From Candidatus Saccharimonadales bacterium (GTDB lineage Bacteria; Patescibacteriota; UBA1384; 2-12-FULL-50-11), in assembly GCA_035480235.1 (NCBI GenBank), contig DATIHX010000008.1, forward strand, positions 96,104 through 160,103: a stretch of 64,000 nt of DNA. Direction: 5' to 3'. Under the pieces are notes generated by a model that ran no database searches, was not told where the DNA came from, and was given only the letters and a program-made list of their open reading frames with translations. Below are positions 9,592-46,689 of this stretch, piece after piece. The position numbers were made by a program, and so were the translations under genes. The first letter of the stretch is position 1; the number at the start of each line of letters is the position of its first letter.

Positions 9592-11856
9592 TTACTCGGT
9601 TTTGGCGACGGCAGCTTCGGTGGCTTCTTTCGTGAAGTCGCAATTAGAGCACTTGAGGCCGTCTTTTTTCTTTAATAGTAAGTGACCGCAGTCGGGGCAC
9701 TTTTCGGTGGTGGGTTCGTCCCAAAAAGCGGTTTTGCAAGCGGGGTAGTTGTTACAGCCCCAGAAAATTTTGCCGCGTTTGGAACGCTTCTTAACTAAAT
9801 CGCCTTTGGCGCAGTTGGGGCATTTGACGCCGGAGCTAACTTCCACGGATTTGGTGTATTTGCACTTCGGGTAGTTGCTGCAGCCAATAAACGTGCCGAA
9901 ACGACTTTGCTTCACAATTAATTCGCCGCCGTCTTCCGGGCATTTCTCTTTAATCATTTCTTGCAGAATTGGGCTGATGGCTTTTTCTTCGCTGCCGCCG
10001 GCCGTGCCCAAAAACGGCTCAGTGTGTTTGCAATCGGGGAAGCCGCTGCAGGCGTAGAACTTACCGAAACGGCCGAGTTTCAGCACGAGCGGCTTACCGC
10101 ACTTTGGGCAGATTTTATCTGTTTCCTCCACCACGTTTTTCTTTTCCAATGTCCCCTCTTTTTCTTTGAGGAGTAACGCAAACGGCTCGTAGAAATCCCG
10201 CAAAACCGGCACCAGCTGTTTGTCGCCATCGGCGATGTCGTCCAGCTCGTCTTCCATTTTGGCAGTGAAGTCATAGTCGATAATAGCCGGGAAGTTTTCT
10301 ACTAGTAAATCGGTGACCACGCCAGCCACGTCTTCCGGCACAAAGCGGCCGGTTTGCTTAGTCACGTAACCGCGGTCAACGATGGTGCTCATAATTGGCG
10401 CGTAAGTGGACGGCCGGCCGATGCCGCGCTTTTCCAGTTCTTTAACCAGCGTGGCTTCGGAATAACGAGCTGGCGGTTCGGTGAAGTGCTGCTCGGTTTC
10501 CATTTTCTTGACCGTCACCTTCTCGCCGGCGGTCATTTTAGGAAGTTTCACAAAACGTTCTTCCGAGTCTGGGTAAACTTTAAGAAATCCGTCAAAAGAC
10601 AGTTCGCGGCCGCGGGCAATTAAATCAATTTTAGCCGAACTGCCAACCCTGACGATGGTATTTTTAACTTCGGCCGGCGTCATCTGCGAGGCCATCGCCG
10701 CTTGCCAAATTAAGGTGTAAAGGCGGGCGTGGTCGCGCTCTAGGCTTTTGCTGGCCACTGCCGGCAGCAAGGCGAAATCGGTTGGGCGGATGGCTTCGTG
10801 GGCTTCTTGGGCGCCGCGAACTTTTTTGGTGAAAGTATTAGGCACGGCGGGTTGGTAGCGCTCACCGTATTGGCTAACAATCTGGGCGCGGGCTTGGGTT
10901 TTAGCAGTGTTCGATAAATTGTACGAATCGGTTCGCATGTAAGTAATTAGACCTTGGGCTGGGCGGCCGTCGACACTCATACCTTCGTAAAGGTCCTGAG
11001 CAATTTTCATTGTCCGTTTGGCGGAAAATCCGAGAACGCGCGAGGCCATCTGCTGCAAAGTGGAGGTAATGAGCGGCGGCGATGGGCGCAGCGTGGTGTT
11101 AGTTTCACTGATGTCGGCCACATTGAAATCGGCGTTTTTCAGTTGGTTTAAGATTTTGTCGACTTCGGCTTTGGTAGCCAGTTCCAACTTGGCGGTGGAG
11201 CCTTCTTTAACAAGCGTGGCCGGGAATTCGCCAGCGGCCGCTTTCAAGATAGCTTCCAATGTCCAGGATTCTTTGGGCACAAAAGCTTTAATTTCCCGTT
11301 CGCGCTCCACCACTAACCGCACGGCCACGCTTTGGACCCGGCCGGCCGATAAGCCGCGGTAAACTTTTTTCCACAGTAGCGGCGAGAGTTTATAGCCAAC
11401 TAAACGGTCTAGGGCTCGGCGGGCTTGTTGAGCATCAACCAGATTTTGATCGATATCTCTGGGGTTAGCTACCGCCTCTTGAACCGCCTGCTTGGTGATT
11501 TCCGAGAAGCTGACTCGGTGAATTTTGGGATTTGGTTTTTGGGGTTTGGTTTTTTCCAGGCCAAGAGCCTGGATAAGATGCCACGCGATCGCCTCGCCTT
11601 CGCGGTCTGGGTCGGGCGCCAGGTAAAGTTCGTCTGCGTCAGCGATATCTTTCTTTAATTCGGCTAGAACTTTTTTTGCCCGGACGATCGGCTGATAGTC
11701 GATGGCGAAGTCGTGATCCACATCGATGCCGAGTTTACTCTTCGGCAAATCGCGGACGTGGCCGAAAGAGGCTTTGACCGTAAAGTCTTTGCCAAGATAG
11801 CCAGCGATGGTTTTGGCTTTGGCAGGAGATTCGACAATAACAAGTTTTTTAGGCAT
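9592..11856 (-). CDS. topA: DNA topoisomerase I
   Basis: Toprim N-terminus, ITYMRTDS active-site region and multiple C-terminal C4 zinc fingers. Confidence 0.97.
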   Translation of the reverse strand: MPKKLVIVESPAKAKTIAGYLGKDFTVKASFGHVRDLPKSKLGIDVDHDFAIDYQPIVRAKKVLAELKKDIADADELYLAPDPDREGEAIAWHLIQALGLEKTKPQKPNPKIHRVSFSEITKQAVQEAVANPRDIDQNLVDAQQARRALDRLVGYKLSPLLWKKVYRGLSAGRVQSVAVRLVVEREREIKAFVPKESWTLEAILKAAAGEFPATLVKEGSTAKLELATKAEVDKILNQLKNADFNVADISETNTTLRPSPPLITSTLQQMASRVLGFSAKRTMKIAQDLYEGMSVDGRPAQGLITYMRTDSYNLSNTAKTQARAQIVSQYGERYQPAVPNTFTKKVRGAQEAHEAIRPTDFALLPAVASKSLERDHARLYTLIWQAAMASQMTPAEVKNTIVRVGSSAKIDLIARGRELSFDGFLKVYPDSEERFVKLPKMTAGEKVTVKKMETEQHFTEPPARYSEATLVKELEKRGIGRPSTYAPIMSTIVDRGYVTKQTGRFVPEDVAGVVTDLLVENFPAIIDYDFTAKMEDELDDIADGDKQLVPVLRDFYEPFALLLKEKEGTLEKKNVVEETDKICPKCGKPLVLKLGRFGKFYACSGFPDCKHTEPFLGTAGGSEEKAISPILQEMIKEKCPEDGGELIVKQSRFGTFIGCSNYPKCKYTKSVEVSSGVKCPNCAKGDLVKKRSKRGKIFWGCNNYPACKTAFWDEPTTEKCPDCGHLLLKKKDGLKCSNCDFTKEATEAAVAKTE

Positions 11857-11891
11857 GGAGTTTGCTTAGTATAACCTATACTTCTAGTTCT

Positions 11892-18984: not shown

Positions 18985-20010
18985 CTACGGAGTGACGTTA
19001 CCGGTTCCCCCATAGACATTAAAGTCGTAGATACTAAGTAAAGTGCCGGATTTGCGGTCGACGGTGGCCAACAGCGTCCGTTTGGTGGCGCCGGCGTAAC
19101 CGGTGGCGGTGATTTTGCTGACGGTGGAATCGAAGTTAACGTTGGCGCTGGTGGTGCCGCTGGAGCTGGTGACGGTGGAAAAGGTGGCGCCGACGCTGCC
19201 CAAATTGTAACAACTGGAGCCGACGCCGCTGGTGCCGAGTGGCCGAATGCGCAAAGTGCTCGCCACGCTGCCGCCGCCGGTACCGCCTCGTATCAGCAAA
19301 TTGGTTCCCTGGGCTGCCGAGTCGTAAGTGGGCTGGCTGCCGATTTGGCTAACGACCACTTGTGGCTGGAATTGAGTGCCGCTACCGTTTTGGTTGATTT
19401 GTTGAATCGTCACCGAGCAGCCGCTGGGGTTGCCGGTCCAGCTGAATTGATAGCGAAGATAATAGTCGTTGGTTGAATCGGGAAAACCGGTTAATTCCAA
19501 GCTGTCGTCTTGGGCGATCGGGCTGGCTAATGTCAGAGCGGCGTTGGTGGTTTTGTAGTCGACTTTCAAGTCGTAGTATTGGTGAACTGGGTTGTAGCCG
19601 CTGGTCGAGGTGATGGTAGTGTTATCCTGAACGTTGCCAACGGCACTGCCGGCGGTTAGGTCGTAGCGCTCAGCAGTACTTAAGACAGCCCCGTTGGTGT
19701 CGCGGCGAATGGTGTCGACGTTGCGGCCGAACCTAAAGCGAACCAAGCCGTCTTCGATGCCGGCTTTGGCGGCGTAATAAGCAGCGACGTTATCTTCGTC
19801 GGCCGACGACTGGCCAAACTGCACCAGCGCCAACCGCTGAACGCCGAGGGTTACCGTGACGATGCCGGCCACCACCAGCATAACGAAAATTAGACTACTC
19901 GCCGAGGATCGGCGAGCAGAATTACTGAATCTTCGAATTACTGAATTACTGATTTTTTCCGGATTTAGTAATTTAGTCATTGAGTTATTACGTAATTCTT
20001 TCTTAGTCAT
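18985..20010 (-). CDS. pilin-like/minor pilin protein with an AT-rich-encoded leader
   Basis: The start is taken at the ATG overlapping the upstream stop (ATGA). N-terminus MTKKELRNNSMTKLLNPEKISNSVIRRFSNS followed by a hydrophobic helix. Confidence 0.6.
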   Translation of the reverse strand: MTKKELRNNSMTKLLNPEKISNSVIRRFSNSARRSSASSLIFVMLVVAGIVTVTLGVQRLALVQFGQSSADEDNVAAYYAAKAGIEDGLVRFRFGRNVDTIRRDTNGAVLSTAERYDLTAGSAVGNVQDNTTITSTSGYNPVHQYYDLKVDYKTTNAALTLASPIAQDDSLELTGFPDSTNDYYLRYQFSWTGNPSGCSVTIQQINQNGSGTQFQPQVVVSQIGSQPTYDSAAQGTNLLIRGGTGGGSVASTLRIRPLGTSGVGSSCYNLGSVGATFSTVTSSSGTTSANVNFDSTVSKITATGYAGATKRTLLATVDRKSGTLLSIYDFNVYGGTGNVTP

Positions 20011-20816
20011 ATTGCTCCCGGCACCACCGTGGTATCTAAAGTGTAACAGGTGCCGGCGCCGAGGGTGGCGCAAGTTTGGGCAGCATCGCCGGCCGGTTTC
20101 AGATCGAAGTGGATTTTGACGTACGGCGAAGCCGTGGCGCTTTTGGCAGCGGCGATGTCGAGACCGCTAAAGACCGGCGTCAGGCCGCCAAGGCCGTCGG
20201 CGACGTAGGCGCTGCTCAACAAGTCGGCCGGGGTGGCTGGTGGGCTGGCCGCCGCACACGGCGCGGTTTGGCTGGCGACCACGGGGTTGCCGCCGCCAAG
20301 TGGGGTGCAAACCGACAAGCCGCGCAACTCGTAGACGTAAACGCTTGGCCGGTTATTGAGGGTTTGGGCGGCGTAGAGGCGCCAAACCAAATCCCCTGCC
20401 CCGGTGGCGCCTGGGTACTTCAACAGCAGTTCGGCTTCGTCACAGCCAAAAGCGTTACCCAACCGAACGCCCGTAAAGATGCTAGCCGGCGAGCCGCAGC
20501 TGCTTTTGAGCGAAGCTGGTTGGTCGACGGTATCCACGTAGTGCAAGTCGTTGGTGAGTTGGTCAGTCACCGACCGAGCGGCTTGAACTTGGGCCCGGAC
20601 GACGTTACTTTGGCTGCTAGAGCTGACCGAACGGGCAAAAGCGGCAATGGCCAGAACGATGAGGCCGGAAAAGATCAGCACCGAGACCAGGAGTTCGATG
20701 AGGGTGTAGGCTCGGCGAGAAGCTCTCGCCGAATGACTAAATCTCTGAATTACTGAATTACTGAGTCTATTTAGTAATTTAGTAATTTCGTAATTTCGTA
20801 ATTTTTTTCTGATCAT
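20007..20816 (-). CDS. type IV pilin-like protein (pseudopilin)
   Basis: 36-aa leader, then YTLIELLVSVLIF. ATGA overlap with the upstream gene. Confidence 0.75.
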   Translation of the reverse strand: MIRKKLRNYEITKLLNRLSNSVIQRFSHSARASRRAYTLIELLVSVLIFSGLIVLAIAAFARSVSSSSQSNVVRAQVQAARSVTDQLTNDLHYVDTVDQPASLKSSCGSPASIFTGVRLGNAFGCDEAELLLKYPGATGAGDLVWRLYAAQTLNNRPSVYVYELRGLSVCTPLGGGNPVVASQTAPCAAASPPATPADLLSSAYVADGLGGLTPVFSGLDIAAAKSATASPYVKIHFDLKPAGDAAQTCATLGAGTCYTLDTTVVPGAI

Positions 20817-21640
20817 TGCCCGCTCCCCCCGGTGCCAAAGTTGGCGCCACTGAATCCAGCCGTTTGCTCAAAGCCTTTCCAGTTGGTGAGTAATGTTGCC
20901 ACGTCGGCGACGGTGAAGCCGGTTTTATTGCTTGTAACAACCACCGAGCGAACTTTGACGGCGTTGCCGGCCGGGATGATGGTGGGGCTGTTGGTAGCAA
21001 CGCTGGAGAGTTCGTCGCGATTAAGACTGGCTTGAGTGTTGGTGCAGTAGTTGTTAGCGCTGTCGCAAGGGGCGGTGGTGTGCGAGCGGTCGCCGTCGCT
21101 GGCGATCGCTGAGCCGCCGGCGCTAGTGTTACAGCTATCGGTGGTGGCGTCCCGCCGGGTAACAGCCCCGACCGACTCCAGGCAAATCAGGCGAAAAGCC
21201 GTCAGCGACTGGCTGGTTTTGGCTTCGCTATTGGTGTTGTTAAGGGTAGTAAAATCGATGGTATTGCCCAGACCAGTGGCTTTAGTGAGCGCCCAATTGT
21301 TACCGTTTTGGCTTAACGTGTACCAGCCGTAATTAGCCGGGTCGGTGGCTTCGTTGAGCCAAATTGAGTTATTGCCGTCGTTGTTGCCCGCCAGTAAATT
21401 ATCGTCGCGATGAGCGGCGGTGAGCTCCAACCCCTCGCTGGCCCAACGGTTGAGAATGGTGACATCGGCGTTAACGGCTGTCCCCCGGATAATTGAGTTG
21501 TTGAGGCCAACAATCGCCCCGGAAACGATAAATAAGATACCCCCGGCAATTAGTACTTCCAACAACGTGAAACCCTTCTTAGAATTACTAAATAACTTAA
21601 TTTTAGTAATTTTATTATTTAGTAATTTTCTTATTGCCAT
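20813..21640 (-). CDS. type IV pilin-like protein
   Basis: MAIRKLLNNKITKIKLFSNSKKG then FTLLEVLIAGGILF. Confidence 0.8.
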   Translation of the reverse strand: MAIRKLLNNKITKIKLFSNSKKGFTLLEVLIAGGILFIVSGAIVGLNNSIIRGTAVNADVTILNRWASEGLELTAAHRDDNLLAGNNDGNNSIWLNEATDPANYGWYTLSQNGNNWALTKATGLGNTIDFTTLNNTNSEAKTSQSLTAFRLICLESVGAVTRRDATTDSCNTSAGGSAIASDGDRSHTTAPCDSANNYCTNTQASLNRDELSSVATNSPTIIPAGNAVKVRSVVVTSNKTGFTVADVATLLTNWKGFEQTAGFSGANFGTGGSGQ

Positions 21641-21651
21641 TTAGTCATTAC

Positions 21652-22335
21652 CTAGTTATAGGTTGAAGTTATTTTACCGGTAAAATTATCTACATTAACT
21701 GTGGCGGTGCGGCCGTTGAAAGTCAATTGGAAAAGCGGATGAGTAAAATTGGTGATGGTATCAACCTGCCAGCTCTTGCCAACTTTGCTGAAGCTGGTCA
21801 GCTGCTTGATCGGGGCTTTGAACGCCACCACGGCCGAGCTGGCCGACTGGTTAGCGAGGCTGTCGCCGCCCGAAAGTTGATCCTGTTCAACCAAGCAGCT
21901 ACTCGAAGTGGCGGCGGCGTTGATGCCGCAACTGCCGCCGTTCAAATCGGTAGAGAGCTTAACGATCCGGTAGCTGGTTTGCCCGCTCCCCGGGGCGATG
22001 AGTAGGGCGTAATAGGTGCTGTCTGGGTCGGCTTGAAAGTTTGAACTACCCGAAGAAAGCTGGGTAGAACCGGCCAGCAGCCGGACGTACTCAATTTTAC
22101 TTTCTAGCAAGGTGACGTCGTCGGCCAGACGATTAACAGAAAGTGACCGCGAGACATTAGTCACCAAGATGCCGGTTAACAGGCCAATAATGGCGATGGT
22201 GATTAATAACTCGACCAGAGTAAAAGCCCGCTTGCGAGGGAATATCGAATATCGAATTTCGAATTTCGAAACAAATCCAAAATACAAATTCTTAAATTTC
22301 GGATTTCGGATTTCGGATTTCGGATTTTCTTTCAT
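21652..22335 (-). CDS. type IV pilin-like protein
   Basis: The start ATG overlaps the pilD stop (ATGA). 37-aa leader MKENPKSEIRNPKFKN...RKRA followed by FTLVELLITIAIIG. Confidence 0.8.
   Translation of the reverse strand: MKENPKSEIRNPKFKNLYFGFVSKFEIRYSIFPRKRAFTLVELLITIAIIGLLTGILVTNVSRSLSVNRLADDVTLLESKIEYVRLLAGSTQLSSGSSNFQADPDSTYYALLIAPGSGQTSYRIVKLSTDLNGGSCGINAAATSSSCLVEQDQLSGGDSLANQSASSAVVAFKAPIKQLTSFSKVGKSWQVDTITNFTHPLFQLTFNGRTATVNVDNFTGKITSTYN
22240..22323 (-). repeat. two heptanucleotide tandem repeats inside the pilin leader coding region
   Basis: (GAATWTC)x4 at 22240-22267 and (ATTTCGG)x4 at 22296-22323. Confidence 0.9.
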
Positions 22336-23108
22336 AGCCCCATCCCCCCAAGGTACCAAGCGATAGCCGTGGTTCCCCAAAAAAGGGCGAGCAGGCCGCC
22401 GATAATCAGGAACGGCCCAAAGGGCACGGCGGTTTTCAGTTTAGCCCGTTTGGTTAAGAGTAAAATCGCCCCAAAAACGCCGCCGATCACAAAAGCCAAT
22501 GAGACAAAAACAATGGCGTTCGGGTAACCGGCCAGTAACCCTAGGCCGGCGGCTAGCTTCAAGTCGCCCTCGCCCATCCAGGTGCCGCGGCTGGGGTAAA
22601 CCAGGAGCGCCACCGGCAGAAAACCAATCAGTGCCCCGTACAAACTGTGCAATGGGTTCTGGTAGTACAAAAGCGAAAAAATGGCGGCGCCAAAAAGCAA
22701 AACGTAGGCAAAAAAGTCCGGGATCAACATCTCTTTAAGGTCGTGGAAAAACATCACTACCAAAGCGCCAATAGCGACGATAAAAGCGATGAAAGCGCCA
22801 ATTTGGGAGGCGAGGGTTAAGCTGGAAGTATTGAAAATTAAAAAGTAGCCGCCGGCCAGCAAAAAAGCCGTGGCAGTTTCCACTACCGGGTACTGCCAGG
22901 AAATTGGCCGGCCGCAGTAACGACAGCGGCCTTTGAGGGTGGCGTAACTAATAACCGGGATCAGGTCGTACCATCTTAAATCGGTGCGGCAGTCTGGGCA
23001 GTGGGAGCGACCGGTTAAAATGGTCCGCCACTCGTCAAAGCGCAAAATCACCACGTTCAAGAATGAGCCGAAGACTAAGCCGAAAACAAAAGCGACGATT
23101 CCCCCCAT
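22332..23108 (-). CDS. pilD: prepilin peptidase (A24 family)
   Basis: CPDC...RCRYC zinc motif, multi-TM, aspartyl peptidase A24 pattern. Confidence 0.93.
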   Translation of the reverse strand: MGGIVAFVFGLVFGSFLNVVILRFDEWRTILTGRSHCPDCRTDLRWYDLIPVISYATLKGRCRYCGRPISWQYPVVETATAFLLAGGYFLIFNTSSLTLASQIGAFIAFIVAIGALVVMFFHDLKEMLIPDFFAYVLLFGAAIFSLLYYQNPLHSLYGALIGFLPVALLVYPSRGTWMGEGDLKLAAGLGLLAGYPNAIVFVSLAFVIGGVFGAILLLTKRAKLKTAVPFGPFLIIGGLLALFWGTTAIAWYLGGMGL

Positions 23109-23197
23109 ACTTCATTCATAGTAACAGTTTTAGGCGCCGAGCAAAGGAGGGATTATCCCACTTTCAATTTTCCTTAATCGATAGATTCAATTCTACT

Positions 23198-23221
23198 AAA
23201 GGCAGGGTTTCCCCTGCCTTT
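23198..23221 (-). terminator. terminator after pilA
   Basis: AAAGGCAGGG-TTTC-CCCTGCCTTT. Confidence 0.75.
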
Positions 23222-23288
23222 AGAGTTTTTCAATGAAGTTGAAAAACTATTGCGGACCGCGATGCGGGACGCAAAGAGCCTGAAATCT

Positions 23289-23855
23289 CTATTGCGGACC
23301 GTAAACGACCCAAGCTCGGACGTTGTTACCCATAGTGGTTAACTGATACGCCGCGCCGTTACCTGGCGTTACTGTACCGGTCGCGCCGGCCAAGTACTCA
23401 CCGTTACCGGTGGCGACTGTGCCTTCCGTGCCGTTCTGCAAAGCCGCGGCCGCCGCATAGTTGGTGGTCGTAGCGTTCGAGGTGTATTTGGCGGTGTTGT
23501 AGCCAGTAAACACCTGCGAAGTCGCGCCGCCGGTGACGTACGAAGCCAAACAAGCGCCCAGCGTTACCCCAGCGTTGGCGCAGTTGGAAACCGTGCCGCC
23601 GTTGATGTTGACGCCGTTAGCCGCCGCCGTTGGGTAGGCCCCGGTCGTTTGATCGGAGTAGTACTGCTCCAACGTAGTCGAGAGCGTGCGCAAGTTATTC
23701 TTGGTTTGAGTGTCGGCGGCTCGCAGACGAGCACCGGTCAGCGAAGTAATAATCAACGCCGCCAAGATACCGATAATGGCGATGACGACGAGCAATTCAA
23801 TTAACGTAAACCCGCGCCGGCCAACCAAAGCAAAACCTTTTTTCATCTTATTCAT
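23289..23855 (-). CDS. pilA: type IV major pilin
   Basis: MNKMKKGFALVGRRG then FTLIELLVVIAIIGILAAL. It has its own promoter and terminator. Confidence 0.9.
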   Translation of the reverse strand: MNKMKKGFALVGRRGFTLIELLVVIAIIGILAALIITSLTGARLRAADTQTKNNLRTLSTTLEQYYSDQTTGAYPTAAANGVNINGGTVSNCANAGVTLGACLASYVTGGATSQVFTGYNTAKYTSNATTTNYAAAAALQNGTEGTVATGNGEYLAGATGTVTPGNGAAYQLTTMGNNVRAWVVYGPQ

Positions 23856-23939
23856 TGTTTCTCCTTTAAAGACTCATGAAGATTCAGCTTTCGTCGACCG
23901 CCCCTCTCGCAAACTATACCGGTGAAAGCCATTAACCTT

Positions 23940-23968
23940 ACTATCACCTGCCACATAATGGCTGTCAA
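23940..23968 (-). promoter_or_regulatory. pilA promoter
   Basis: Minus strand reads TTGACA, 17 nt, GATAGT. Confidence 0.6.
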
Positions 23969-23987
23969 GGTGACGCGGGAAAAAGCG

Positions 23988-25064
23988 TTATTGAATGACG
24001 CTGGAAAGGTTGTAGATCGGCACGATGATGGAGAAGATCAAGAACGCCACGCCGAGGCCGACAATCACAAAGACGATCGGCTCGACCAGCGCCGAGATAT
24101 TTTTAATCTGTTGGTTGGTTTGGGCTTCGTAGAAGTCGGCCAATTTTGATAAGACCTGTTCGAGTTTGCCGGTTTTTTCGCCGGCGGCGACCATTTCGGT
24201 GATGGCCGCTGGAAATTCGGGGAATTTGGCTAAGGTTTGGGAGATCGGGGCGCCGCGCTCGACGTTGCGGGCCACCACTAAGAGAGCGTCGCGGTAGACG
24301 ACGCTGTCGAGCACCAACGCCACCGAATCGAGGGCCGTAATAATCGGCACGCCGGCCGAGATCATAATGCCCAGAATCCGGGTGAAGCGGGCCATTTCCA
24401 AAGAAACGAACATCCCGCCGAAAACCGGAATTTTAATGACCCAAGTATTAATAAAACGCTGACCTTCTTCGCTCCGGACAAAGCGGATAATTAAGTAAAT
24501 TAATATTCCCAGGCCGATAATATAGAGGTACCAGTAGGCGATCAGCGAATTGGTCAGCGCTACGACCGTCCGGGTGGTCCAGGGCAAGGTGGCGTGGCTT
24601 TGTTTGAAGACTACTTCGAGGGCTGGGACGATCTTGGTGACCATAATAATGCCAACGAAAAACATCGCCACAATAATGAAAGCTGGGTAGAGTAAGGCCC
24701 CCAAAACTTTCGAGCGGAAGCCATAATCGCGCTCCAGTTCGTCGGCTAAGAGACCTAAAGCAACGTCGAGTTTACCCGAGGCTTCGCCGGCCGCCACCAC
24801 CGAAACAAAAACGTGATTGAAAACTTTTGGATGTTTTTGGATGGCATCGGAGAATTTGTAGCCGTTTTCCAAATCAGCGACGATCGCCGTTAAGGCCGTT
24901 TGAACGGCTTTGTTTTGCGACTGCTCGGCCAGCGAACGGGTGGCTTGGGCTAGCGGCAAGCCGGCATCCAGCATCACCGCCAGTTGCCGAGCCACAAACG
25001 ACCGATCCGACGCCGGCACCGTGCCCAAAATATTGGCAATAGACAGGCTTTGGGTCTGGGCCAC
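23988..25064 (-). CDS. pilC: type IV pilus platform protein (GspF/PilC family)
   Basis: Two GspF-like repeats with three TM helices. GTG start. Confidence 0.93.
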   Translation of the reverse strand: MAQTQSLSIANILGTVPASDRSFVARQLAVMLDAGLPLAQATRSLAEQSQNKAVQTALTAIVADLENGYKFSDAIQKHPKVFNHVFVSVVAAGEASGKLDVALGLLADELERDYGFRSKVLGALLYPAFIIVAMFFVGIIMVTKIVPALEVVFKQSHATLPWTTRTVVALTNSLIAYWYLYIIGLGILIYLIIRFVRSEEGQRFINTWVIKIPVFGGMFVSLEMARFTRILGIMISAGVPIITALDSVALVLDSVVYRDALLVVARNVERGAPISQTLAKFPEFPAAITEMVAAGEKTGKLEQVLSKLADFYEAQTNQQIKNISALVEPIVFVIVGLGVAFLIFSIIVPIYNLSSVIQ

Positions 25065-25129
25065 TAGAAATCTCCGATTTCTAGAATTACTAAATTACTG
25101 AATTTTTCCGGATTTAGTAATTTAATCAT
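25064..25129 (-). other. 21-codon AT-rich mini-ORF whose stop overlaps the pilC start (TAGTG)
   Basis: MIKLLNPEKFSNLVILEIGDF*. The nucleotide module is shared with the pilin leaders. Confidence 0.4.
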
Positions 25130-25197
25130 TTTGCGAAGTGATAACAGAGCGAATGTAAATGGATAATACATTTAGTAATTTAGTAATTATTTCCTCG

Positions 25198-26265
25198 TTA
25201 GTAGACCATCATCTTGAAGGCTTTCGGGTCGATCGCCCAAGCCAGCGCCGTGTCGATGGTAATCTCGCCGCGACTGACTAATTCGGCTAAGACTTTATCG
25301 AGGGCGATCATCCCTTCAGAGGCCGAGGTCTGAATAATGTTGGGTAGTTGGTGAGTCTTGCCTTCGCGGATGGTGTTACGAACGGCTGAGTTGGCCACCA
25401 TAATTTCGGTGGCCAGCACCCGCCCGCCCTGAACTTTCGGCAACAAACGCTGCGAGACCACGCCCAAAAGGACGTTAGCGAGTTGCATCCGCACTTGCAT
25501 TTGTTGATGCGGCGGGAAAACGTCGATAATTCGGTCGGCGGTTTGGGCGGCCGAGTTGGTGTGTAAAGTAGTGAACACCAGGTGGCCGGTTTCAGCCAGG
25601 GTTAAGGCGGCTTCGATGGTTTCCAAATCGCGCATCTCGCCCACTAAAACCACGTTCGGGTCCTCGCGCAAGGCGCTGCGCAAAGCCCGGCTGAAGGAAT
25701 TGGTATCAACGCCAACTTCTCGCTGAACGACGATCGACTTTTGATGCTCAAAAACGTACTCGATCGGGTCTTCGATGGTAATAATGTGTTCGGCCCGGGT
25801 TTGGTTGATATGCTCCACCAGCGCCGCCAAGGTGGTGGATTTGCCGTGACCGGTTGGGCCGGTAATGATCACAAAACCCTGGCTGGGCTCGGCAAAGCGC
25901 TCGAGAATTGGCGGCACGCCGAGTTGTTCCATCGTTTTAATGGCCACTGGAATCAGCCGCAGCGCCGCCCCGATGTTGCCCTTTTGGTAAAAAGCGTTGG
26001 TTCGGAAGCGCATCTTTTGGTAACCGAATGAAAAATCCAGCTCCCGCCGGGTAGTCAGCCGCTCTGTTTGCTCCGGCGTCATAATGCTGGAGAGTAGCCG
26101 TTCGGCCGTTTCGGCGGTCAGGACGCCTTGGTCGGTCAGCGCCAACAGCCGGCCGTCAACTCGCAAAATCGGTGGCGTCCCCACCGTGATATGTAAATCC
26201 GAAGCGTTTTTCTCGACCGCTAAGTCGAGTAAACTTTTCATCTGGGCAGTCAAAGCTTCAGCCAT
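25198..26265 (-). CDS. pilT: twitching motility ATPase PilT
   Basis: GPTGHGKST Walker A, 355 aa, PilT family. Confidence 0.95.
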   Translation of the reverse strand: MAEALTAQMKSLLDLAVEKNASDLHITVGTPPILRVDGRLLALTDQGVLTAETAERLLSSIMTPEQTERLTTRRELDFSFGYQKMRFRTNAFYQKGNIGAALRLIPVAIKTMEQLGVPPILERFAEPSQGFVIITGPTGHGKSTTLAALVEHINQTRAEHIITIEDPIEYVFEHQKSIVVQREVGVDTNSFSRALRSALREDPNVVLVGEMRDLETIEAALTLAETGHLVFTTLHTNSAAQTADRIIDVFPPHQQMQVRMQLANVLLGVVSQRLLPKVQGGRVLATEIMVANSAVRNTIREGKTHQLPNIIQTSASEGMIALDKVLAELVSRGEITIDTALAWAIDPKAFKMMVY

Positions 26266-26428
26266 TGTTAATTCCCTCCATGCTTATTCCCATCGTACAA
26301 TAAATAATTTTCATCGGCGAATCTGCCAACATTACAAATATCCAATAACCAATAATCAAGTAGCAAGGATTGAATATTAATTATTTGATTATTATTTGAA
26401 TATTGACTATTGATTATTGAAAATTTTT

Positions 26429-28903
26429 TCATTCGGTCGTTCCTGGTACTTCTTTAATCGAGGTCATGGTGACGCGCATCACTTCATCCACCGTCGTTAA
26501 GCCCTTGAGGGCTTTCATCAAGCCGTCTTGGACCATCGTCACCATGCCGTTTTTGATCGCCGCTTTCTGCAGCTCCGAGGCCGGGGCTTTCTTGACGGCC
26601 AAGTTTTCGATTTCTTCGTTCATCGCCATAACTTCGAAGATACCCACCCGGCCGCGGAAGCCATCGGTGCAGTTCGGGCAGCCTTTGCCGTGGTAGAAAA
26701 CCAGTTGCTCCAGATCCACCGCCTTCAACTGGCCGCTCGGCACGGCCGCCAATTCCCGTTGAGCCCGGGCCAACACCGCCGGCGGCACCGCCACTTTTTC
26801 CCGGCAGTCTTCGCAAATCCGCCGCACCAACCGCTGGCCGATGACGGCGTTTAACGACGAAGTGATGAGGAACGGCTCGATGCCCATATCGATCAAGCGC
26901 GGCAGCGCCCCCGAGGCTTCGTTGGTGTGAAGGGTGGAAAGCACCAAGTGGCCGGTCAGGGCCGCCTGGGTAGCCATCGCCGCCGTTTCCAAATCGCGGA
27001 TTTCGCCGACCATAATGACATTCGGGTCTTGGCGCAGCACCGAGCGCAAACCTTCGGCAAAAGTAAAGCCGATCTGCGGCATCACCTGGGCTTGGTTCAA
27101 ACCTGGCAGCTCGTACTCTACCGGGTCTTCCAGGGTAATAATGTTGACGCCGGGGCGGGAGATGCGCGTTAAAATGGAGTAAAGCGTGGTCGATTTACCG
27201 CTACCGGTCGGGCCGGTAGAGAGGATAATGCCGTACGGCTTGGCGATGTTTTTAATTAAGACGTCGAAGTTCGAGCCGGTCAGGCCCAACTGCTCCAGCG
27301 TTTGCATGCCCTCGGATTTATCCAGCAAGCGCATCACCACTTTTTCGCCGTGAATGGTCGGCAAGGTGGAAACCCGCAAATCGACTTGCCGTTTATCCAG
27401 CACCACATCAAACCGGCCGTCTTGCGGCACCCGGCTCTCGTCGATTTTCATTTTGGAGAGGATCTTAATGCGGGCGATGAGCGGCGCGTGCAAAAAGCTC
27501 GGCGCCTTAACGATGTCGTGCAAAATGCCGTCGATCCGGTAACGAATCCGCAAGTACTCTTTTTCGGTTTCCAGGTGGACGTCGCTGGCCCGCATCCGGA
27601 TGGCTAAGAACAGCACCGCTGCCACTACTTCCGGCACCATGCCGGTTTTGAAGACTTCGGCCAAATCAGCGGTGGAAGTGACTGGTTTTTTGATCAATTT
27701 ATCGAGGTCTTGGTCTTCCAATGAGGCCTGCTGGGCCTCGGCCATCCGGGCCAGCTCCTTCACCGACTCGGCTGTTGGCCGGTTGACGATATCGCCAGCC
27801 GTTAAGGTGACCAATGTTTGCTCGCCGGCGGCTGGCGGTTGGCTTTCACTCCTTAAAATCGGCGACGGGGTGGCCGAAGCTGGCACGGTTTCGCCGGTGG
27901 CAGCGCCTGGCGGGGCACCGGCCGTTTCCGCCAGAGGCGCGGCCGAAGGCAGCGCGCTTGGTGGTTGTTCGACCTGGCGAGCCGGATGGTAATACTTGGC
28001 TTCGGGGTAGAGCTTGAGCGCCGCTTCAAAAGAGGCCGTCGTCGTGCGGTAGCGGTCGATCAGCAGTTTGTTCCGGTTTTCGATGTAGGCCAAAATTTCT
28101 TTGACGTGGAGGCTCTCGGGTTCCACCATCGCCACTTTAATCATCGGCGGCTCGAATGGCCCGGGGTGGCGGCTGGCGTCAAAAACAATCAGTTGGTACC
28201 GTTTGGCTACCGCGTAAGGGATTTGGTTGAGAGTGGCCGGCGGAATTGCTTGGCCAGTTAAATCAATGGTTTTACCGACGCCTTCGACGGTTTTATGGAG
28301 CTCGGAATGTGCCGGCGTCGCGGCGATTGGCAGGCTTTTGGGCGGGGCCGGCGGAAGCGGCAGAATGTCGAGCGGAGCCGGTTTCAACTCGGCCGCTGGT
28401 TGGTCGTAGGCTTTAATCACCACCGCCTCGGCGTCGCCCGGCGGCACCACCACCAATTTAATATGGAGGCCTTTTTCTTTGCGCAGCCGCACCAACGCCC
28501 CCGGGGCGTCGCGCTGCAACAGCGCCGGGTCGGTAACGGCCAGGGTCAAAACGGCATTTTTCAGCTCGAAGGGTAGCACCTTATAGCGTTCGATCGCCTC
28601 GCGCGGCAAGAGCTTGACCACGCTGGGGTTAATCGGCCGGTCAACTAACCGTTCAAACGGTAAGCCAAAAAATTCGGCCAAGAGCTCCAAGAGCGGCTGC
28701 GGCTCAACCAGCCGGTGGTGCAGAATATAGGCGCGAATTTCGGCGATGGTTCGGCCGTGCAAAACTTGCCGGAAGCCGGGTTTCAGCAGCCCTTTTTCCA
28801 CCAAAAAATTCAGCAAACTCCGGGCAGAAGCGCTGGCTGGGGCGGAGAGATCGCCGGGCCGCGCTACCTTGTCCTCAACCGGTAAGTGGGTGTTGGCCGG
28901 CAT
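26429..28903 (-). CDS. pilB: type IV pilus assembly ATPase PilB/GspE with a long N-terminal extension
   Basis: GPTGSGKST, tetracysteine CEDC...CPNC, N-terminal GspE_N-like domains and a Pro/Ala-rich linker. Confidence 0.93.
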   Translation of the reverse strand: MPANTHLPVEDKVARPGDLSAPASASARSLLNFLVEKGLLKPGFRQVLHGRTIAEIRAYILHHRLVEPQPLLELLAEFFGLPFERLVDRPINPSVVKLLPREAIERYKVLPFELKNAVLTLAVTDPALLQRDAPGALVRLRKEKGLHIKLVVVPPGDAEAVVIKAYDQPAAELKPAPLDILPLPPAPPKSLPIAATPAHSELHKTVEGVGKTIDLTGQAIPPATLNQIPYAVAKRYQLIVFDASRHPGPFEPPMIKVAMVEPESLHVKEILAYIENRNKLLIDRYRTTTASFEAALKLYPEAKYYHPARQVEQPPSALPSAAPLAETAGAPPGAATGETVPASATPSPILRSESQPPAAGEQTLVTLTAGDIVNRPTAESVKELARMAEAQQASLEDQDLDKLIKKPVTSTADLAEVFKTGMVPEVVAAVLFLAIRMRASDVHLETEKEYLRIRYRIDGILHDIVKAPSFLHAPLIARIKILSKMKIDESRVPQDGRFDVVLDKRQVDLRVSTLPTIHGEKVVMRLLDKSEGMQTLEQLGLTGSNFDVLIKNIAKPYGIILSTGPTGSGKSTTLYSILTRISRPGVNIITLEDPVEYELPGLNQAQVMPQIGFTFAEGLRSVLRQDPNVIMVGEIRDLETAAMATQAALTGHLVLSTLHTNEASGALPRLIDMGIEPFLITSSLNAVIGQRLVRRICEDCREKVAVPPAVLARAQRELAAVPSGQLKAVDLEQLVFYHGKGCPNCTDGFRGRVGIFEVMAMNEEIENLAVKKAPASELQKAAIKNGMVTMVQDGLMKALKGLTTVDEVMRVTMTSIKEVPGTTE

Positions 28904-43058: not shown

Positions 43059-43979
43059 TTACGGGTGAGTTCGTTTGCTGTCGTGAGCAGCTAACAGCCC
43101 CGTTCTAGTGAGCCAAATAATTTGAATCCTGCTCAAACCCGTCTCATTTACCACGTCTCTCATCCGCAGCCACTGCTCTTCTTCGAGAAGTTGATGGCTA
43201 GCCAAAGCTTTCTCGAGTTCGGCCTGCCAGCTGTCAGGATGATGAACGGTCTTTCCGGGGTTGAGGTAGTAACCCCTGGCCCCTTTTTCAAGACTGCGAA
43301 GCCTTTGATGACAGGCAGGCGAACAAGTTCTCCGCCGGCGCATCCCCTTGACAATAAGGTTATTGCATTCGGGATTCTCGCACTTGCTTTTATCAAGCAA
43401 CGCTGAGAGCTCCGCGAAGCCTTCTCGTGTCAGAACGATTCGATTGCGGTCAACCCGCCGCCAACCGGCAATTCTCCCTGTTAAGCACCAATTTTCAATC
43501 GTTTTCTCATCCTTAACACCCGTTTTAGTGCACGCCTTCTTAAGGCTGACGCAAGACTTCTTCAAGGCCTGGGGGCCGAAGAGTTTCTTAATCAACCGCA
43601 ATCTCCGGTGAACAGGGGGGTAATGCGGCCAGGTTGACAAGGCAAGTGTCTTAGCGATGTATCCGATGGAGTAACCTTGCCTATAAAGTGCCCAAACAAC
43701 GAACAAAGACTTCAGCTCGTAATATCCTCTTGGTCGCGGCCGAACTCCTTCTGTTGTATGCCGAACTGGTTGATCAAGCTTATTGAAAACAAAACGGAGC
43801 TGACCGCTGGATAGATCCAATTGATCCAGGATTTCTTGGAACGCATAGCCCTGGTCGATCAACGTCTGAACCTCCCTCATCCGGCGCTGAATACGAAGTT
43901 GGGTACTGCCTTTTACCTGACCGGGTCGTTTGGCTTTAACCACCCCAAGAGGTGGCGTGCGATCTAATTGTTGAGACAT
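43059..43979 (-). CDS. multi-HTH protein with a zinc ribbon and a HYPP module
   Basis: The start ATG is preceded by GGAGG. Excisionase/MerR-like HTH segments (ETGLSRIQIIWLTRTGLL; TIENWCLTGRIAGWRR), CENPEC...CSPAC and WPHYPP. Confidence 0.7.
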   Translation of the reverse strand: MSQQLDRTPPLGVVKAKRPGQVKGSTQLRIQRRMREVQTLIDQGYAFQEILDQLDLSSGQLRFVFNKLDQPVRHTTEGVRPRPRGYYELKSLFVVWALYRQGYSIGYIAKTLALSTWPHYPPVHRRLRLIKKLFGPQALKKSCVSLKKACTKTGVKDEKTIENWCLTGRIAGWRRVDRNRIVLTREGFAELSALLDKSKCENPECNNLIVKGMRRRRTCSPACHQRLRSLEKGARGYYLNPGKTVHHPDSWQAELEKALASHQLLEEEQWLRMRDVVNETGLSRIQIIWLTRTGLLAAHDSKRTHP

Positions 43980-44028
43980 CCGATACCTCCGAAGGTGGAA
44001 ATGTGCGCCCGAAAATCCGAGCAATTGA

Positions 44029-44061: not shown

Positions 44062-45666
44062 CTAAGTGCTTTTTTCTTTGACCATCTTGCTCGGCGCAGA
44101 AATCCCCATCAACTCCAGCGTTCGCTTGACGGTAATACTCGCTGCTTTCAAAATTGCTAAGCGGGATTGAGCGATTTCCGCTGGTTCGCCCAGCACCCGG
44201 AGCTTCTCGTAAAACGTGTGAACGTCGGTGGCCAAAGCTGTAGCGAAATGGGCCAGTTTGTGAACTTCCAAACTTCCGCTGAGTTCGGCCACCAAATCCG
44301 GAAATTGAATAATCCGCAGCAATAACTGCCGCTCGGCTGGCTGCGACAAAACGATTTTTTCCGGCAACTCAAACTCGTTTTCCTTGGAAAATTCCCGAAA
44401 GATCGAGGAAATCCGGGCGTAGGCGTATTGAATATAAAACACCGGATTTTGGCTGGAACTCGACTTGGCGATATCAAAATTAAAATCGAGATGGCTATCA
44501 ACCGAGCGTGACAGGAAAAAGAACCGGGCGACGTCAGCACCGACTTCATCCAACACTTCATCCAACGCCACGTAATTGCCGGCTCGTTTACTCATCTTCA
44601 CTTCTTTGCCTTTTTCAAACAGCCGAACAATTTGGGTGATCACCCAATCGAGCTGGCCGCCCCAGGTGTAATGATCACGGAGCACCCCTTCAATAACCAT
44701 GTTCATTTGACGAGTGTACTGGAAGTGGTCAGCGCCGCCGACCCAAATCAACCGGTGATAACCACGTTGGATTTTGTAGCTATGATAAGCGATGTCGTTC
44801 GCAAAGTACGTCGGCAAGCCGTCGGAACGGACCAAAACCCGGTCTTCCGAGTCGCCAAAACGAGTGGTCGAGAGCCAAGTGGCGCCGTCAGCGTCGTAGG
44901 TGAGGCCGCGCAGCTTCAATAAATCCATCGTTTTTTTATAAACGCCGGTTTGATGCAACGATTTTTCCGAGAAAAACTGATGGAAATTAATCCCTAACTG
45001 ACGCAAAACCGGCTTAATCATCGTTTCCATGATAATCACCACCGCCTCTTCGCCGGCGTCGCGATCGGTTTTAGCCTTAATTCGGCTCCGGAGCTCGTCG
45101 ACGTACGGACCGCTATATTGTTTGGCTGGATCGTCGCCGTGCAAAACCGAGTGGCCCAGGTGATCGACTTGGGTGCCGGTATCGTTCAAGTAGAACTCCC
45201 GCATCACCGTACAGCCGTAGAGCTCGAGGACCCGGGCGATCGCTTCGCCCACAAAGGCGCCGCGACCGTTAGCCAGCGTTAATGGCCCGGTTGGGTTAGC
45301 CGAAACATATTCCAACAAAACCCGGGTTTCTTTGCCGGCATCGCTTTTGCCGAAATTGTCGGGCGATTTCAATATTGCCGCAACAGTAGTGGCCAAATAA
45401 TCGTCGGTGACGGTGAAATTAATAAAACCGGGCGTGGCGACGTTAACCGAGCGAAAACTCTGATGAGCCGTTAACTCGGCGACAATTTTTTGAGCCAGGG
45501 CCACCGGGGCCTGGCCGGCCGGCTCGGCGCCGACCAAAGCGACGTTAGTGGAAAAATCGCCGAAAATTGGTTTTTTCGCCGGCTCGATAGCAAAAACCGG
45601 TGGCTCGGCTTGAACCACTTTTTTATAAGCCTGACGAATATGTTCGCGCAGTTCGCCTAAAACCAT
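44062..45666 (-). CDS. argS: arginyl-tRNA synthetase
   Basis: SANPTGPL (HIGH-equivalent), MSKRAG and a DALR anticodon-binding C-terminus. Confidence 0.95.
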   Translation of the reverse strand: MVLGELREHIRQAYKKVVQAEPPVFAIEPAKKPIFGDFSTNVALVGAEPAGQAPVALAQKIVAELTAHQSFRSVNVATPGFINFTVTDDYLATTVAAILKSPDNFGKSDAGKETRVLLEYVSANPTGPLTLANGRGAFVGEAIARVLELYGCTVMREFYLNDTGTQVDHLGHSVLHGDDPAKQYSGPYVDELRSRIKAKTDRDAGEEAVVIIMETMIKPVLRQLGINFHQFFSEKSLHQTGVYKKTMDLLKLRGLTYDADGATWLSTTRFGDSEDRVLVRSDGLPTYFANDIAYHSYKIQRGYHRLIWVGGADHFQYTRQMNMVIEGVLRDHYTWGGQLDWVITQIVRLFEKGKEVKMSKRAGNYVALDEVLDEVGADVARFFFLSRSVDSHLDFNFDIAKSSSSQNPVFYIQYAYARISSIFREFSKENEFELPEKIVLSQPAERQLLLRIIQFPDLVAELSGSLEVHKLAHFATALATDVHTFYEKLRVLGEPAEIAQSRLAILKAASITVKRTLELMGISAPSKMVKEKST

Positions 45667-45667
45667 A

Positions 45668-45733
45668 TCAATAAAGAATTATTAAATTACTGAATTTTTG
45701 AATTACAAAATTAGAATTGAGTAATTTAGTCAT
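45668..45733 (-). other. 21-codon AT-rich mini-ORF ending 1 nt before the argS ATG
   Basis: MTKLLNSNFVIQKFSNLIILY*. The module is shared with the pilin leaders. Confidence 0.4.
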
Positions 45734-45822
45734 TGAGTTATTTAGTAATTTGGCCAGGCGGAATTGATCGTACCGACTAAACAACAACCCCAGTATATTC
45801 TTCACTTAGCCAATCAGCAACA

Positions 45823-46689
45823 CTATTGCCCGACGTAGTAATTGTATGGTCCAGGATTGGTGGTACCGCCACCACCACCGCCCGTGTCCGGTACGCAAAC
45901 GCCGTTAACCAAGATTTGGCCGACTGGGCAGCTGGTGGTACCGCCGCCCCCACCGCCGCCATCGCAAGTTGTTGTGCCGTCGGGGTTAACGTGGCAAGTC
46001 CCGCCTCCCACTTGAGCGTGGGCAACAGTGGCAAAAAGCCCACCTGGCGGTAAAATCGTGATATAGTTTGTTGCTATTTTCACCCCGCTAGCGCTACGTG
46101 AAATAACATGTTGATCGCAGTCATAGGGCTGGCCGCCAAAGCTGGCGATCCAAACGTGGCTGAGGCGAACGCACTCCAGCTGGTCGGCGCTGCCGGCGGC
46201 GAATTGGTGTTCCAGCGATGTTGTCAAACGATAGTGTTTGGCCACGGCCGCTACAGAAGCGGCCCCGCTGGTTTCGGTAGTTGAAAGGTTGAAATAATAG
46301 GAAAAGGTCGGCGAGCGAACGTCGTTGGGAATAGTCGGCAGGTAATGGCTGAAGGTGCCGCAGCCATCGCTGTAGGAGGCTAATTGGCTGGTTTTTGTCC
46401 AAACCAGTGTTGGGCTGGGGTTGAGGCCACCGCCCGGGTAAACGCCAACGGCTGATTGATCGCTACAGGTTTTATCCAACTGCCGGGCGCTAAAAGCTTG
46501 AGCGATTTGGTTTAAATCGGATTTACGCACCGCGTCGCGGGCTTGCGCCTGGGCTTGAGCGTAAACGTAGGTGCCCAGCGCCAAGAGTATGCCGATGATG
46601 GCGATAACAGCCAGCGACTCAATGAGAGTAAAGCCGCGACGAGCATGATTGGAGATCAGTGATTTAGGGCTTAGAATCTTAAGCTGCAT
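45823..46689 (-). CDS. type IV pilin-like protein with a Gly/Thr/Cys-rich C-terminus
   Basis: MQLKILSPKSLISNHARRG then FTLIESLAVIAIIGILLAL. GGGGGGTT repeats near the C-terminus. Confidence 0.85.
   Translation of the reverse strand: MQLKILSPKSLISNHARRGFTLIESLAVIAIIGILLALGTYVYAQAQAQARDAVRKSDLNQIAQAFSARQLDKTCSDQSAVGVYPGGGLNPSPTLVWTKTSQLASYSDGCGTFSHYLPTIPNDVRSPTFSYYFNLSTTETSGAASVAAVAKHYRLTTSLEHQFAAGSADQLECVRLSHVWIASFGGQPYDCDQHVISRSASGVKIATNYITILPPGGLFATVAHAQVGGGTCHVNPDGTTTCDGGGGGGGTTSCPVGQILVNGVCVPDTGGGGGGTTNPGPYNYYVGQ

Follow-up and report, generated by a model that had tools for sequence, protein, structure and literature searches.

The 21-codon open reading frame (ORF) that ends directly before argS belongs to a dispersed palindromic DNA repeat, and we conclude with high confidence that a copy of this repeat family was inserted in the argS leader. 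This repeat is the unit of homology; it is neither a product of chance nor specific to argS. In our preferred interpretation, to which we assign a probability of roughly 0.6, the cassette is a MIRU-like or RPE-like dispersed palindromic repeat, in which ribosomes read through the built-in frame and this translation is coupled to the gene that follows. Translation of the argS mini-ORF and its coupling to argS are proposed with moderate confidence; the peptide itself is probably without function. The cassette is not an argS-specific or arginine-responsive control element.

The argS mini-ORF and its surroundings

The window, i.e. the whole stretch of 64,000 nucleotides that was analysed, contains the mini-ORF exactly as originally predicted, with base 45667 alone between its TGA and the argS ATG (45666-45664). 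The coordinates of this and other features are given in Table 1. Upstream of the mini-ORF ATG, neither a Shine-Dalgarno (SD)-like motif nor any other recognisable initiation signal was found. SD-like motifs were also missing at the argS ATG in the window and in three orthologues (four species). The longer frame around the mini-ORF includes in-frame TTG codons at 45787-45782, which coincide with the predicted 5' end of the argS transcript. The 45-aa ORF upstream of argS belonged to no Pfam family, and consensus scans called no promoter or terminator on the argS cassette. With Rfam gathering thresholds, five tRNAs were the only matches in the whole window, and positions 45550-45900 gave no match at E ≤ 1, hence neither a T-box nor a riboswitch nor any other known leader. 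The gene downstream of argS (43059-44024, minus strand) encodes a 321-aa protein with a weak match to the resolvase-type HTH_7 domain and a Cys-rich C-terminal part, otherwise without a family.

Table 1. Positions of the argS region and of the repeat copies in the window (all on the minus strand).
Feature	Position	Strand	Remarks
argS (arginine--tRNA ligase)	44062..45666	-	Pfam Arg_tRNA_synt_N, tRNA-synt_1d, DALR_1
argS start region UGGU..UAGGCG	45654..45665	-	weakly predicted pairing with CGCCUGGCCA (45760-45751), base of the cassette hairpin
argS mini-ORF, 21 codons, MTKLLNSNFVIQKFSNLIILY and stop	45668..45733	-	ATG 45733-45731, TGA 45670-45668
full open frame around the argS mini-ORF	45668..45805	-	45 codons from GTG 45805
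cassette, argS copy, 76 nt	45676..45751	-	palindromic, AT-rich
left-arm units, argS copy		-	AAATTACTAAAT (45751-45740), AAATTACTCAAT (45727-45716)
right-arm units, argS copy		-	ATTCAGTAATTT (45695-45684), TTAATAATTC (45685-45676)
putative argS promoter	45792..45820	-	-35 TTGCTG (45820-45815), 17-nt spacer, -10 TATACT (45797-45792)
pilin-like gene upstream of argS	45823..46689	-	RRG/FTLIESL, N_methyl motif; L062 orthologue with cassette in-frame in leader
mini-ORF upstream of pilC, 21 codons, MIKLLNPEKFSNLVILEIGDF and stop	25064..25129	-	TAG overlaps pilC GTG by 1 nt
cassette hairpin, pilC copy	25084-25123	-	distal units 25170-25188
predicted second hairpin at pilC	25084-25064	-	CTAGAAATC-GGA-GATTTCTAG; encloses pilC SD/start region and mini-ORF stop
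cassette in-frame, 5' coding region of PilX-like gene	19920..20010	-	MTKKELRNNSMTKLLNPEKISNSVIRRFSNSARRSSA-SSLIFVML; gene 18985-20010
cassette in-frame, prepilin leader	20740..20816	-	MIRKKLRNYEITKLLNRLSNSVIQRFSHSARASRRA/YTLIELL; G-for-T variants avoid in-frame TAA
cassette in-frame, prepilin leader	21583..21640	-	MAIRKLLNNKITKIKLFSNSKKG/FTLLE

Architecture of the cassette

The repeat is a palindromic DNA array of 8-nt units, (AAATTACK)n-loop-(MGTAATTY)n, with a length of about 45-120 nt. In the argS copy, the central spacer contains a degenerate unit. The GC content is ~20-25% in the cassette and ~34% over 200 nt, compared with ~50% in the other DNA of this region. The palindromic pattern was found at five sites in the window against none expected, all of them on the minus strand. 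Every cluster with both unit types, in the window as well as in related loci, displays the unit order '>><<', and two small clusters consist of right-arm units only. All copies can be folded into AU-rich hairpins; for the argS copy, the stability of the hairpin showed no excess over shuffled sequences (z = -0.5 to -0.9).

One and the same unit reads as KLLN or ITK depending on the register, and successive units change the frame. Thus, the repeat is a feature of the DNA and not a conserved peptide. A pure run of three units yields TAA in every frame, and copies located in coding regions carry G-for-T unit variants exactly where an in-frame TAA would arise. One frame is open through the argS cassette, while the other two close within 6-9 codons; that an ORF exists at all thus follows from the repeat. 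Since a peptide profile search in 5.8 billion proteins matched only four small ORFs, the mini-ORF product is not a conserved small protein.

Copies in the same genome

The sample of the genome comprised the window and contigs of the metagenome-assembled genome (MAG) GCA_964636455.1 (Candidatus Saccharimonadales), whose ArgS is an exact match to that encoded in the window. This sample of ~92 kb contains six copies of the cassette, three of them in-frame in prepilin-like leaders and three non-fused. Of the latter, two precede pilC and argS, respectively, and one separates rpsL from rpsG. No more copies were present in ~8 kb beyond both window ends.

The type IV pilus (T4P) cluster of the window (18985-28903) includes pilB, pilT, pilC, the genes for a major pilin and PilD, and several minor pilin-like genes. 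The frame upstream of pilC is open for 35 codons. The copy between rpsL and rpsG (contig L075 of GCA_964636455.1) holds a 31-codon ORF, which starts right after the TAA of the S12 gene and whose own TAA overlaps the rpsG ATG; a second small hairpin over the start region is predicted there as at pilC (z = -4.9). The mini-ORFs of all three non-fused copies end in close vicinity to the next start, at -1, +1, and +1. The original prediction had paired the argS and pilC mini-ORFs by length, N-terminus and ending. Both do have 21 codons and are placed tightly against a start, but their equal length is coincidental, given the 31 codons of the third intergenic copy, and the homology extends upstream of the ATG. 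In an alignment, the ATG of the argS mini-ORF pairs with a Met codon in the interior of a pilin-like leader (...AATAACTCAATGACTAAATTACT..., 19985-20007), so that the homology does not begin at this codon.

This pilin-like leader is the place near 19968-19990 with which the argS copy had been compared. The recurrence is real at the DNA level: the 25-mer quoted in the original prediction is found at 45718-45742 and 19965-19989 with one mismatch, and shuffles expect none. The latter site, however, is not a mini-ORF but the 5' coding region of a PilX-like gene. Orthologues of this gene in L009 and L057 have short N-termini, and those of the prepilin with the cassette at 21583-21640 have leaders of 5-10 aa in L009 and L059. 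Loop sequences such as CCGGAAAAA are common to the pilC and pilin-like copies.

Copies in related genomes

Relatives were gathered by a metagenome scan, which gave six related contigs, and as contigs retrieved via ArgS, S12 and cassette-peptide matches (L numbers). A search for the palindromic pattern in GTDB representative genomes returned 54 stretches, nearly all of them chance occurrences in AT-rich genomes, and one relevant Saccharibacteria MAG. The copies identified in relatives are located between pilT and pilC (the same position as in the window), between the S14 and S8 genes, between the L22 and S3 genes, between rnhA and rodA, in the rpsL 5' UTR (two species), and upstream of topA (two species). 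Further copies occur after recR, after pilC, upstream of an M50 peptidase gene, and between two tRNA genes. The last one, a minimal copy (AATTACTAATTTCGTAATTTAGTAATTC; L056, 9709-9735), is situated where no protein-coding explanation applies. The original prediction had raised the possibility that other housekeeping genes carry the module; this is the case for the rpsL-rpsG junction in the same genome and for rpsL, rpsH, rpsC, rodA, and topA in relatives. About half of all copies are in or beside T4P genes. Exact 8-mers persist between species whose ArgS proteins are only ~70-80% identical.

In-frame fusion of the cassette was restricted to prepilin-like genes (5 of 5 cases, versus none of the 8 other gene loci tabulated), and orthologues of the fused genes without the cassette have short leaders. 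Such a restriction is expected if proteins tolerate extra N-terminal residues only as part of a leader that is removed by cleavage between G/A and F/Y. The copy in L009 straddles the true start of the prepilin gene after pilD, with its left arm in the UTR, the ATG behind the last unit of this arm, and a right arm that is translated as FSNSVIQKFSNS.

Filled and empty sites at argS and elsewhere

The gene order tyrS-pilin-argS is kept in the window and in three orthologous loci, with ArgS identities of 82%, 79%, and 73%. Of these four loci, only that of the window has the full cassette at argS. The closest orthologous locus, L062 (82% ArgS identity), retains it in decayed form, and it is lacking in L063 and L064, which identifies the argS copy as a lineage-specific insertion and not as a regulator of argS. 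Since the argS orthologues do without it, the cassette is dispensable for argS. Occupancy differs at other loci as well. The site upstream of topA is filled in L031 and L057 and empty in the window. The cassette separates rnhA and rodA in L057; these two genes overlap in the window. The pilin gene next to argS bears a cassette in its leader in L062 and not in the window. One cassette subfamily occupies different loci in these two organisms. No clear target-site duplication was seen at argS, and no mobilising enzyme was identified for the cassette.

Just after the stop of the pilin gene, a promoter motif (-35 TTGCNG, 17 nt, TATACT) is kept with its spacing in the window, L062, and L063, and thus in all of the four species except L064, which shows a TATAAT arrangement. 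It is this conservation that points to a putative argS promoter and a transcription start near 45785; a stricter sigma-70 scan did not flag the site. With this predicted start, the cassette would lie inside an argS 5' UTR of ~119 nt.

Position of the ORFs relative to gene starts

The distances between ORF stops and the following starts are listed in Table 2. The test set consisted of nine copies that were found by the DNA motif, not by the ORF, and that have a gene within ~55 nt downstream. Five of these nine have a stop within -2..+1 of the start, against 0.64 expected from spacer-only shuffles (~8-fold excess, P ~4e-5); this figure has to be read with the reservation that the copies are not phylogenetically independent and that the -2..+1 range was picked after seeing the data. 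The base rate of stops at gene junctions is 4-14% per slot (71 called genes). Some ORFs also begin on the stop of the upstream gene, namely those following S12 (TAA, then ATG), S14 (TAATG), and L22 (ATGA). In 6 of 17 motif-found copies no abutting ORF was present: those at topA in two species, in the tRNA spacer, after recR, after pilC, and at the M50 peptidase gene. The excess of sense over antisense ORFs was only modest. The repeat itself thus explains the existence of an ORF but not the position at which it ends. The claim that the mini-ORFs represent a functional leader or uORF module and not chance is therefore upheld as far as a repeated module with abutting stops is concerned; what recurs, however, is DNA and not a peptide, and argS is not its regulatory target.

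Table 2. Position of the ORF stop end relative to the next start (negative, gap in nt; positive, overlap in nt).
Downstream gene	Source	Distance	Remarks
argS	window	-1	
pilC	window	+1	
rpsG	L075	+1	
rpsL	L058	-2	
rpsL	L067	+1	
rodA	L057	+1	
rpsH	L066	+8	ORF starts on the S14 stop (TAATG)
pilC	L056	+14	
rpsC	L068	-70	followed by a second mini-ORF overlapping the S3 ATG
M50 peptidase gene	L056	-27	
topA	L031, L057		no long ORF

SD-like motifs were recognised in 30 of the 71 called genes; at many ATGs, TATACT stands 6-11 nt upstream. Boxes of the type TATACT, TACAAT or TATAAT, located 6-11 nt before the ATG and not accompanied by an SD, were observed at gene starts in L001, L062, L063, and L064 and at 11866-11877 in the window. 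They suggest that leaderless or very short-leader mRNAs are widespread in this group. The ORFs upstream of rpsL in L075 (9950-10003) and L076 (2940-3003) deserve separate mention. They directly follow a -10-like box (TAGAAT), begin with a duplicated S12 N-terminus (MPTINQL... and MPT..., respectively) and leave 3 nt or 1 nt to the true rpsL ATG. Their layout resembles that of an insertion immediately behind a start codon that was once leaderless.

Other repeat families and neighbouring ORFs

Several unrelated unit families were recognised, including AAATTACT, CCGAAAT, CTCAAAA, and TTTTCAA. Arrays of unrelated units can show the same bridging layout. In L069, a 46-codon ORF lies between rpoB and rpoC with a 0-nt gap and a 1-nt overlap, and in L009 a 37-codon ORF bridges rnhA and rodA. 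Palindromic CTCAAAA/TTTTGAG arrays fill these two junctions (L069, 1805-1945; L009, 6271-6387); their ORFs start at or just before the upstream stop and end 1 nt into the downstream ATG.

In the window, the leader of a prepilin whose start codon overlaps the pilD stop (ATGA; 22240-22334, minus strand) is composed of (CCGAAAT)x4.6 and (TCGAAAT/TCGATAT)x4.4 units. It reads MKENPKSEIRNPKFKNLYFGFVSKFEIRYSIFPRKRA/FTLVELL and has a similar architecture with a different unit family. The AT-rich pilB-pilT spacer (26266-26428, minus strand) is made of 7-nt and 11-nt tandem units (ATTGAAT x8, AATAACC, ATTATTTGATT), followed by the SD-like sequence GGAGGGAAT and pilT. Inside topA (9592-11856, minus strand), a 7/14-nt tandem repeat TTTTGGG/ATTTGGT (plus strand, 11523-11554) encodes KTKPQKPNPK, apparently as a repeat inserted in-frame into the gene of a housekeeping protein. 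The rpsG-fusA spacer of L075 (10988-11179) is filled by a 63-codon ORF for a strongly hydrophobic product (MKVPGIFKLLVSIVVIVELFVG...), which overlaps the fusA start; an 83-codon ORF occupies this place in L076, L078, L079, L080, and L083.

Comparison with known repeat families

Full-text literature searches on Saccharibacteria and Patescibacteria revealed no report of repeats of this kind. According to a 2025 review (PMC12548453), the insertion of MIRUs at start codons couples their internal ORF to the gene, which minimises harm; in a polycistron, the ends of MIRUs overlap with the neighbouring genes (PMC3184786). The cassette resembles MIRUs, which are 40-100 bp long, as a short dispersed repeat in operons or at gene starts, whose small ORF overlaps or abuts the flanking stop and start; in MIRUs, this is supposed to leave downstream translation undisturbed. 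The host clade, too, is rich in SD-less and leaderless genes. Corresponding placements are the junctions pilT-pilC, rpsL-rpsG, S14-S8, L22-S3, and rnhA-rodA and the 5' UTRs of argS and rpsL, and the stop of the internal ORF overlaps or abuts the next start in the five unbiased copies noted above. The differences are that the cassette is AT-rich and palindromic with inverted 8-nt arrays, that its spacing to the start varies (-2 to +1, +8, +14) in contrast to the fixed -4 overlap of MIRUs, and that four contig pairs showed no variation in tandem copy number. The host phylum is Patescibacteria, and the likeness is one of functional class, not of homology.

RPEs are palindromic repeats with an open frame, which occur between genes and in-frame inside coding genes (Ogata et al. 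2000, as related in PMC3184786). The five prepilin-like genes with an in-frame palindromic repeat and an open host frame correspond to this pattern. Compared with RPEs, which reside in surface loops of many proteins, the cassette is shorter, and its in-frame copies are confined to prepilin-like N-terminal leaders. The Neisseria REP2 repeat is located just upstream of genes, pilus genes included, and supplies a 5' UTR and an ATG fused downstream (PMC3184786). The L009 prepilin is similar in that its true start is the ATG at the left arm's end; unlike REP2, no promoter or RBS has been demonstrated in the cassette, and at argS a separate conserved promoter would lie upstream.

With extragenic palindromes of the REP/BIME and MITE type the cassette shares small size, arrangement in arrays, and filled and empty orthologous sites. 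REPs are GC-rich imperfect palindromes of 20-40 bp with a GTAG or CGTC tag (PMC3733652). Membership in the REP/RAYT system was rejected because of the GC content of ~20-25%, the lack of a GTAG/CGTC tag, and the 8-nt unit structure. No Y1_Tnp was found by tblastn in the window or in the ~92 kb sampled from the genome. Single-copy IS200-like Y1_Tnp genes, 57% identical and without flanking cassettes, lie between the major pilin gene and pilD in L009 (900-1484; likewise in L061) and L059 (3385-3978). They resemble a domesticated RAYT and are absent at that position of the window. MITEs are defined by terminal inverted repeats and a target-site duplication; the inverted arms and the filled and empty sites of the cassette agree with the former, while a clear duplication is lacking at argS. 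The short ORFs before rpsL in L075 and L076 do carry a duplicated S12 start.

Proposed scenario

We propose that a repeat copy entered the argS 5' UTR in the window lineage, with the putative conserved promoter directly behind the pilin stop on one side and the argS start, which lacks an SD, on the other. The cassette may spread by transposition or gene conversion. At genes with a cleaved N-terminus, such as those for prepilins, the open frame would simply fuse to the gene; at genes intolerant of an N-terminal extension, copies would survive where the frame closes at the start codon. Ribosomes would translate through the hairpin-forming insert, terminate at or beside the argS AUG, and then re-initiate or unmask this AUG. 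The basal stem of CGCCUGGCCA with UGGU..UAGGCG, predicted in both the MFE and the centroid structure and statistically undistinguished (z = -0.9), would hide the AUG. With such translational coupling, the insert would do little harm to argS expression.

Going further, the short-unit hairpin arrays may be regarded as selected portable translation modules and not as tolerated selfish DNA. The hairpin together with a basal stem or second hairpin would hide the RBS or start, the mini-ORF would open it, and prepilin leaders would be a second use of the module. We consider this reading quite improbable. If true, expression of the T4P genes as well as of argS, rpsL, rpsG, rpsH, rpoC, and rodA would depend on upstream translation or on a unit-recognising factor.

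Alternative interpretations

Somewhat unlikely is the view that the cassette is an untranslated REP- or MITE-like hairpin, which affects mRNA stability, processing or weak termination, or is just tolerated, and whose ORF is a by-product. It agrees with the AU-rich hairpins formed by all copies, with the copies in a tRNA spacer or at gene 3' ends that lack an ORF, and with a mini-ORF that has no SD, has one open frame intrinsic to its units, and finds hardly any counterparts among known proteins. The ~8-fold excess of stops abutting starts and the ORFs that exactly fill the S12-S7, S14-S8, and rpoB-rpoC spacers speak against it, as does the lack of a terminator-like site on the cassette. The palindromic arrangement, the 8-mers conserved between species with ArgS ~70-80% identical, and the association of about half of the copies with T4P genes could also suggest an operator array, in which a dimeric DNA-binding regulator would recognise AATTACT/AGTAATT half-sites and co-control T4P and some housekeeping genes. 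Tandem spacing of 8 bp and variable unit numbers are unusual for operators, though; unrelated unit families occur at equivalent positions, many copies lie inside coding sequences, and the orthologous argS, topA, and rodA sites may be either filled or empty. Such an array is very unlikely.

Even less credit is due to a pseudogenised prepilin leader downstream of the orphan pilin gene, i.e. a remnant of a pilin 5' end, or a silent donor for gene conversion. The argS copy lies 70 nt after a pilin gene and is near-identical to the leader DNA of the gene at 18985-20010, and the loop sequences shared by intragenomic copies suggest gene conversion; yet no mature-pilin sequence follows the cassette, and copies also reside in ribosomal-protein operons. 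A variant of this idea starts from phase-variable short-sequence repeats, of which CTCTT in the signal-peptide region of Neisseria opa genes is an example. Units of 8 nt, not a multiple of three, are indeed present in leader-coding DNA, but their number was unchanged in a small sample of four near-identical contig pairs (L056/L059, L058/L060, L009/L061, and L001/window). An argS-specific leader, either an Arg-sensing attenuation peptide or a T-box-like element, would account for a short ORF beside a hairpin in the 5' UTR of an aminoacyl-tRNA synthetase gene. It is effectively refuted: none of the 21 codons of the mini-ORF encodes Arg, a terminator/antiterminator pair and an Rfam match are both lacking, the cassette is not conserved at the argS orthologues, and it occurs at unrelated genes. 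The MIRU-like or RPE-like repeat with a coupled frame remains our preferred reading.

Implications

The cassette explains odd features in the annotation of CPR genomes, namely long low-complexity prepilin leaders and orphan ORFs of 20-50 codons between essential genes, and gives a rule for their recognition. It also lends itself to the study of translational coupling and re-initiation as they would occur in nature, in a lineage that is poor in SD motifs and rich in leaderless genes and in which translation has hardly been explored. Because the episymbiotic life of Saccharibacteria depends centrally on type IV pili, changes that such repeats bring about in pilin leaders and at the junctions of pilus genes may have consequences for the expression of pili in these bacteria.
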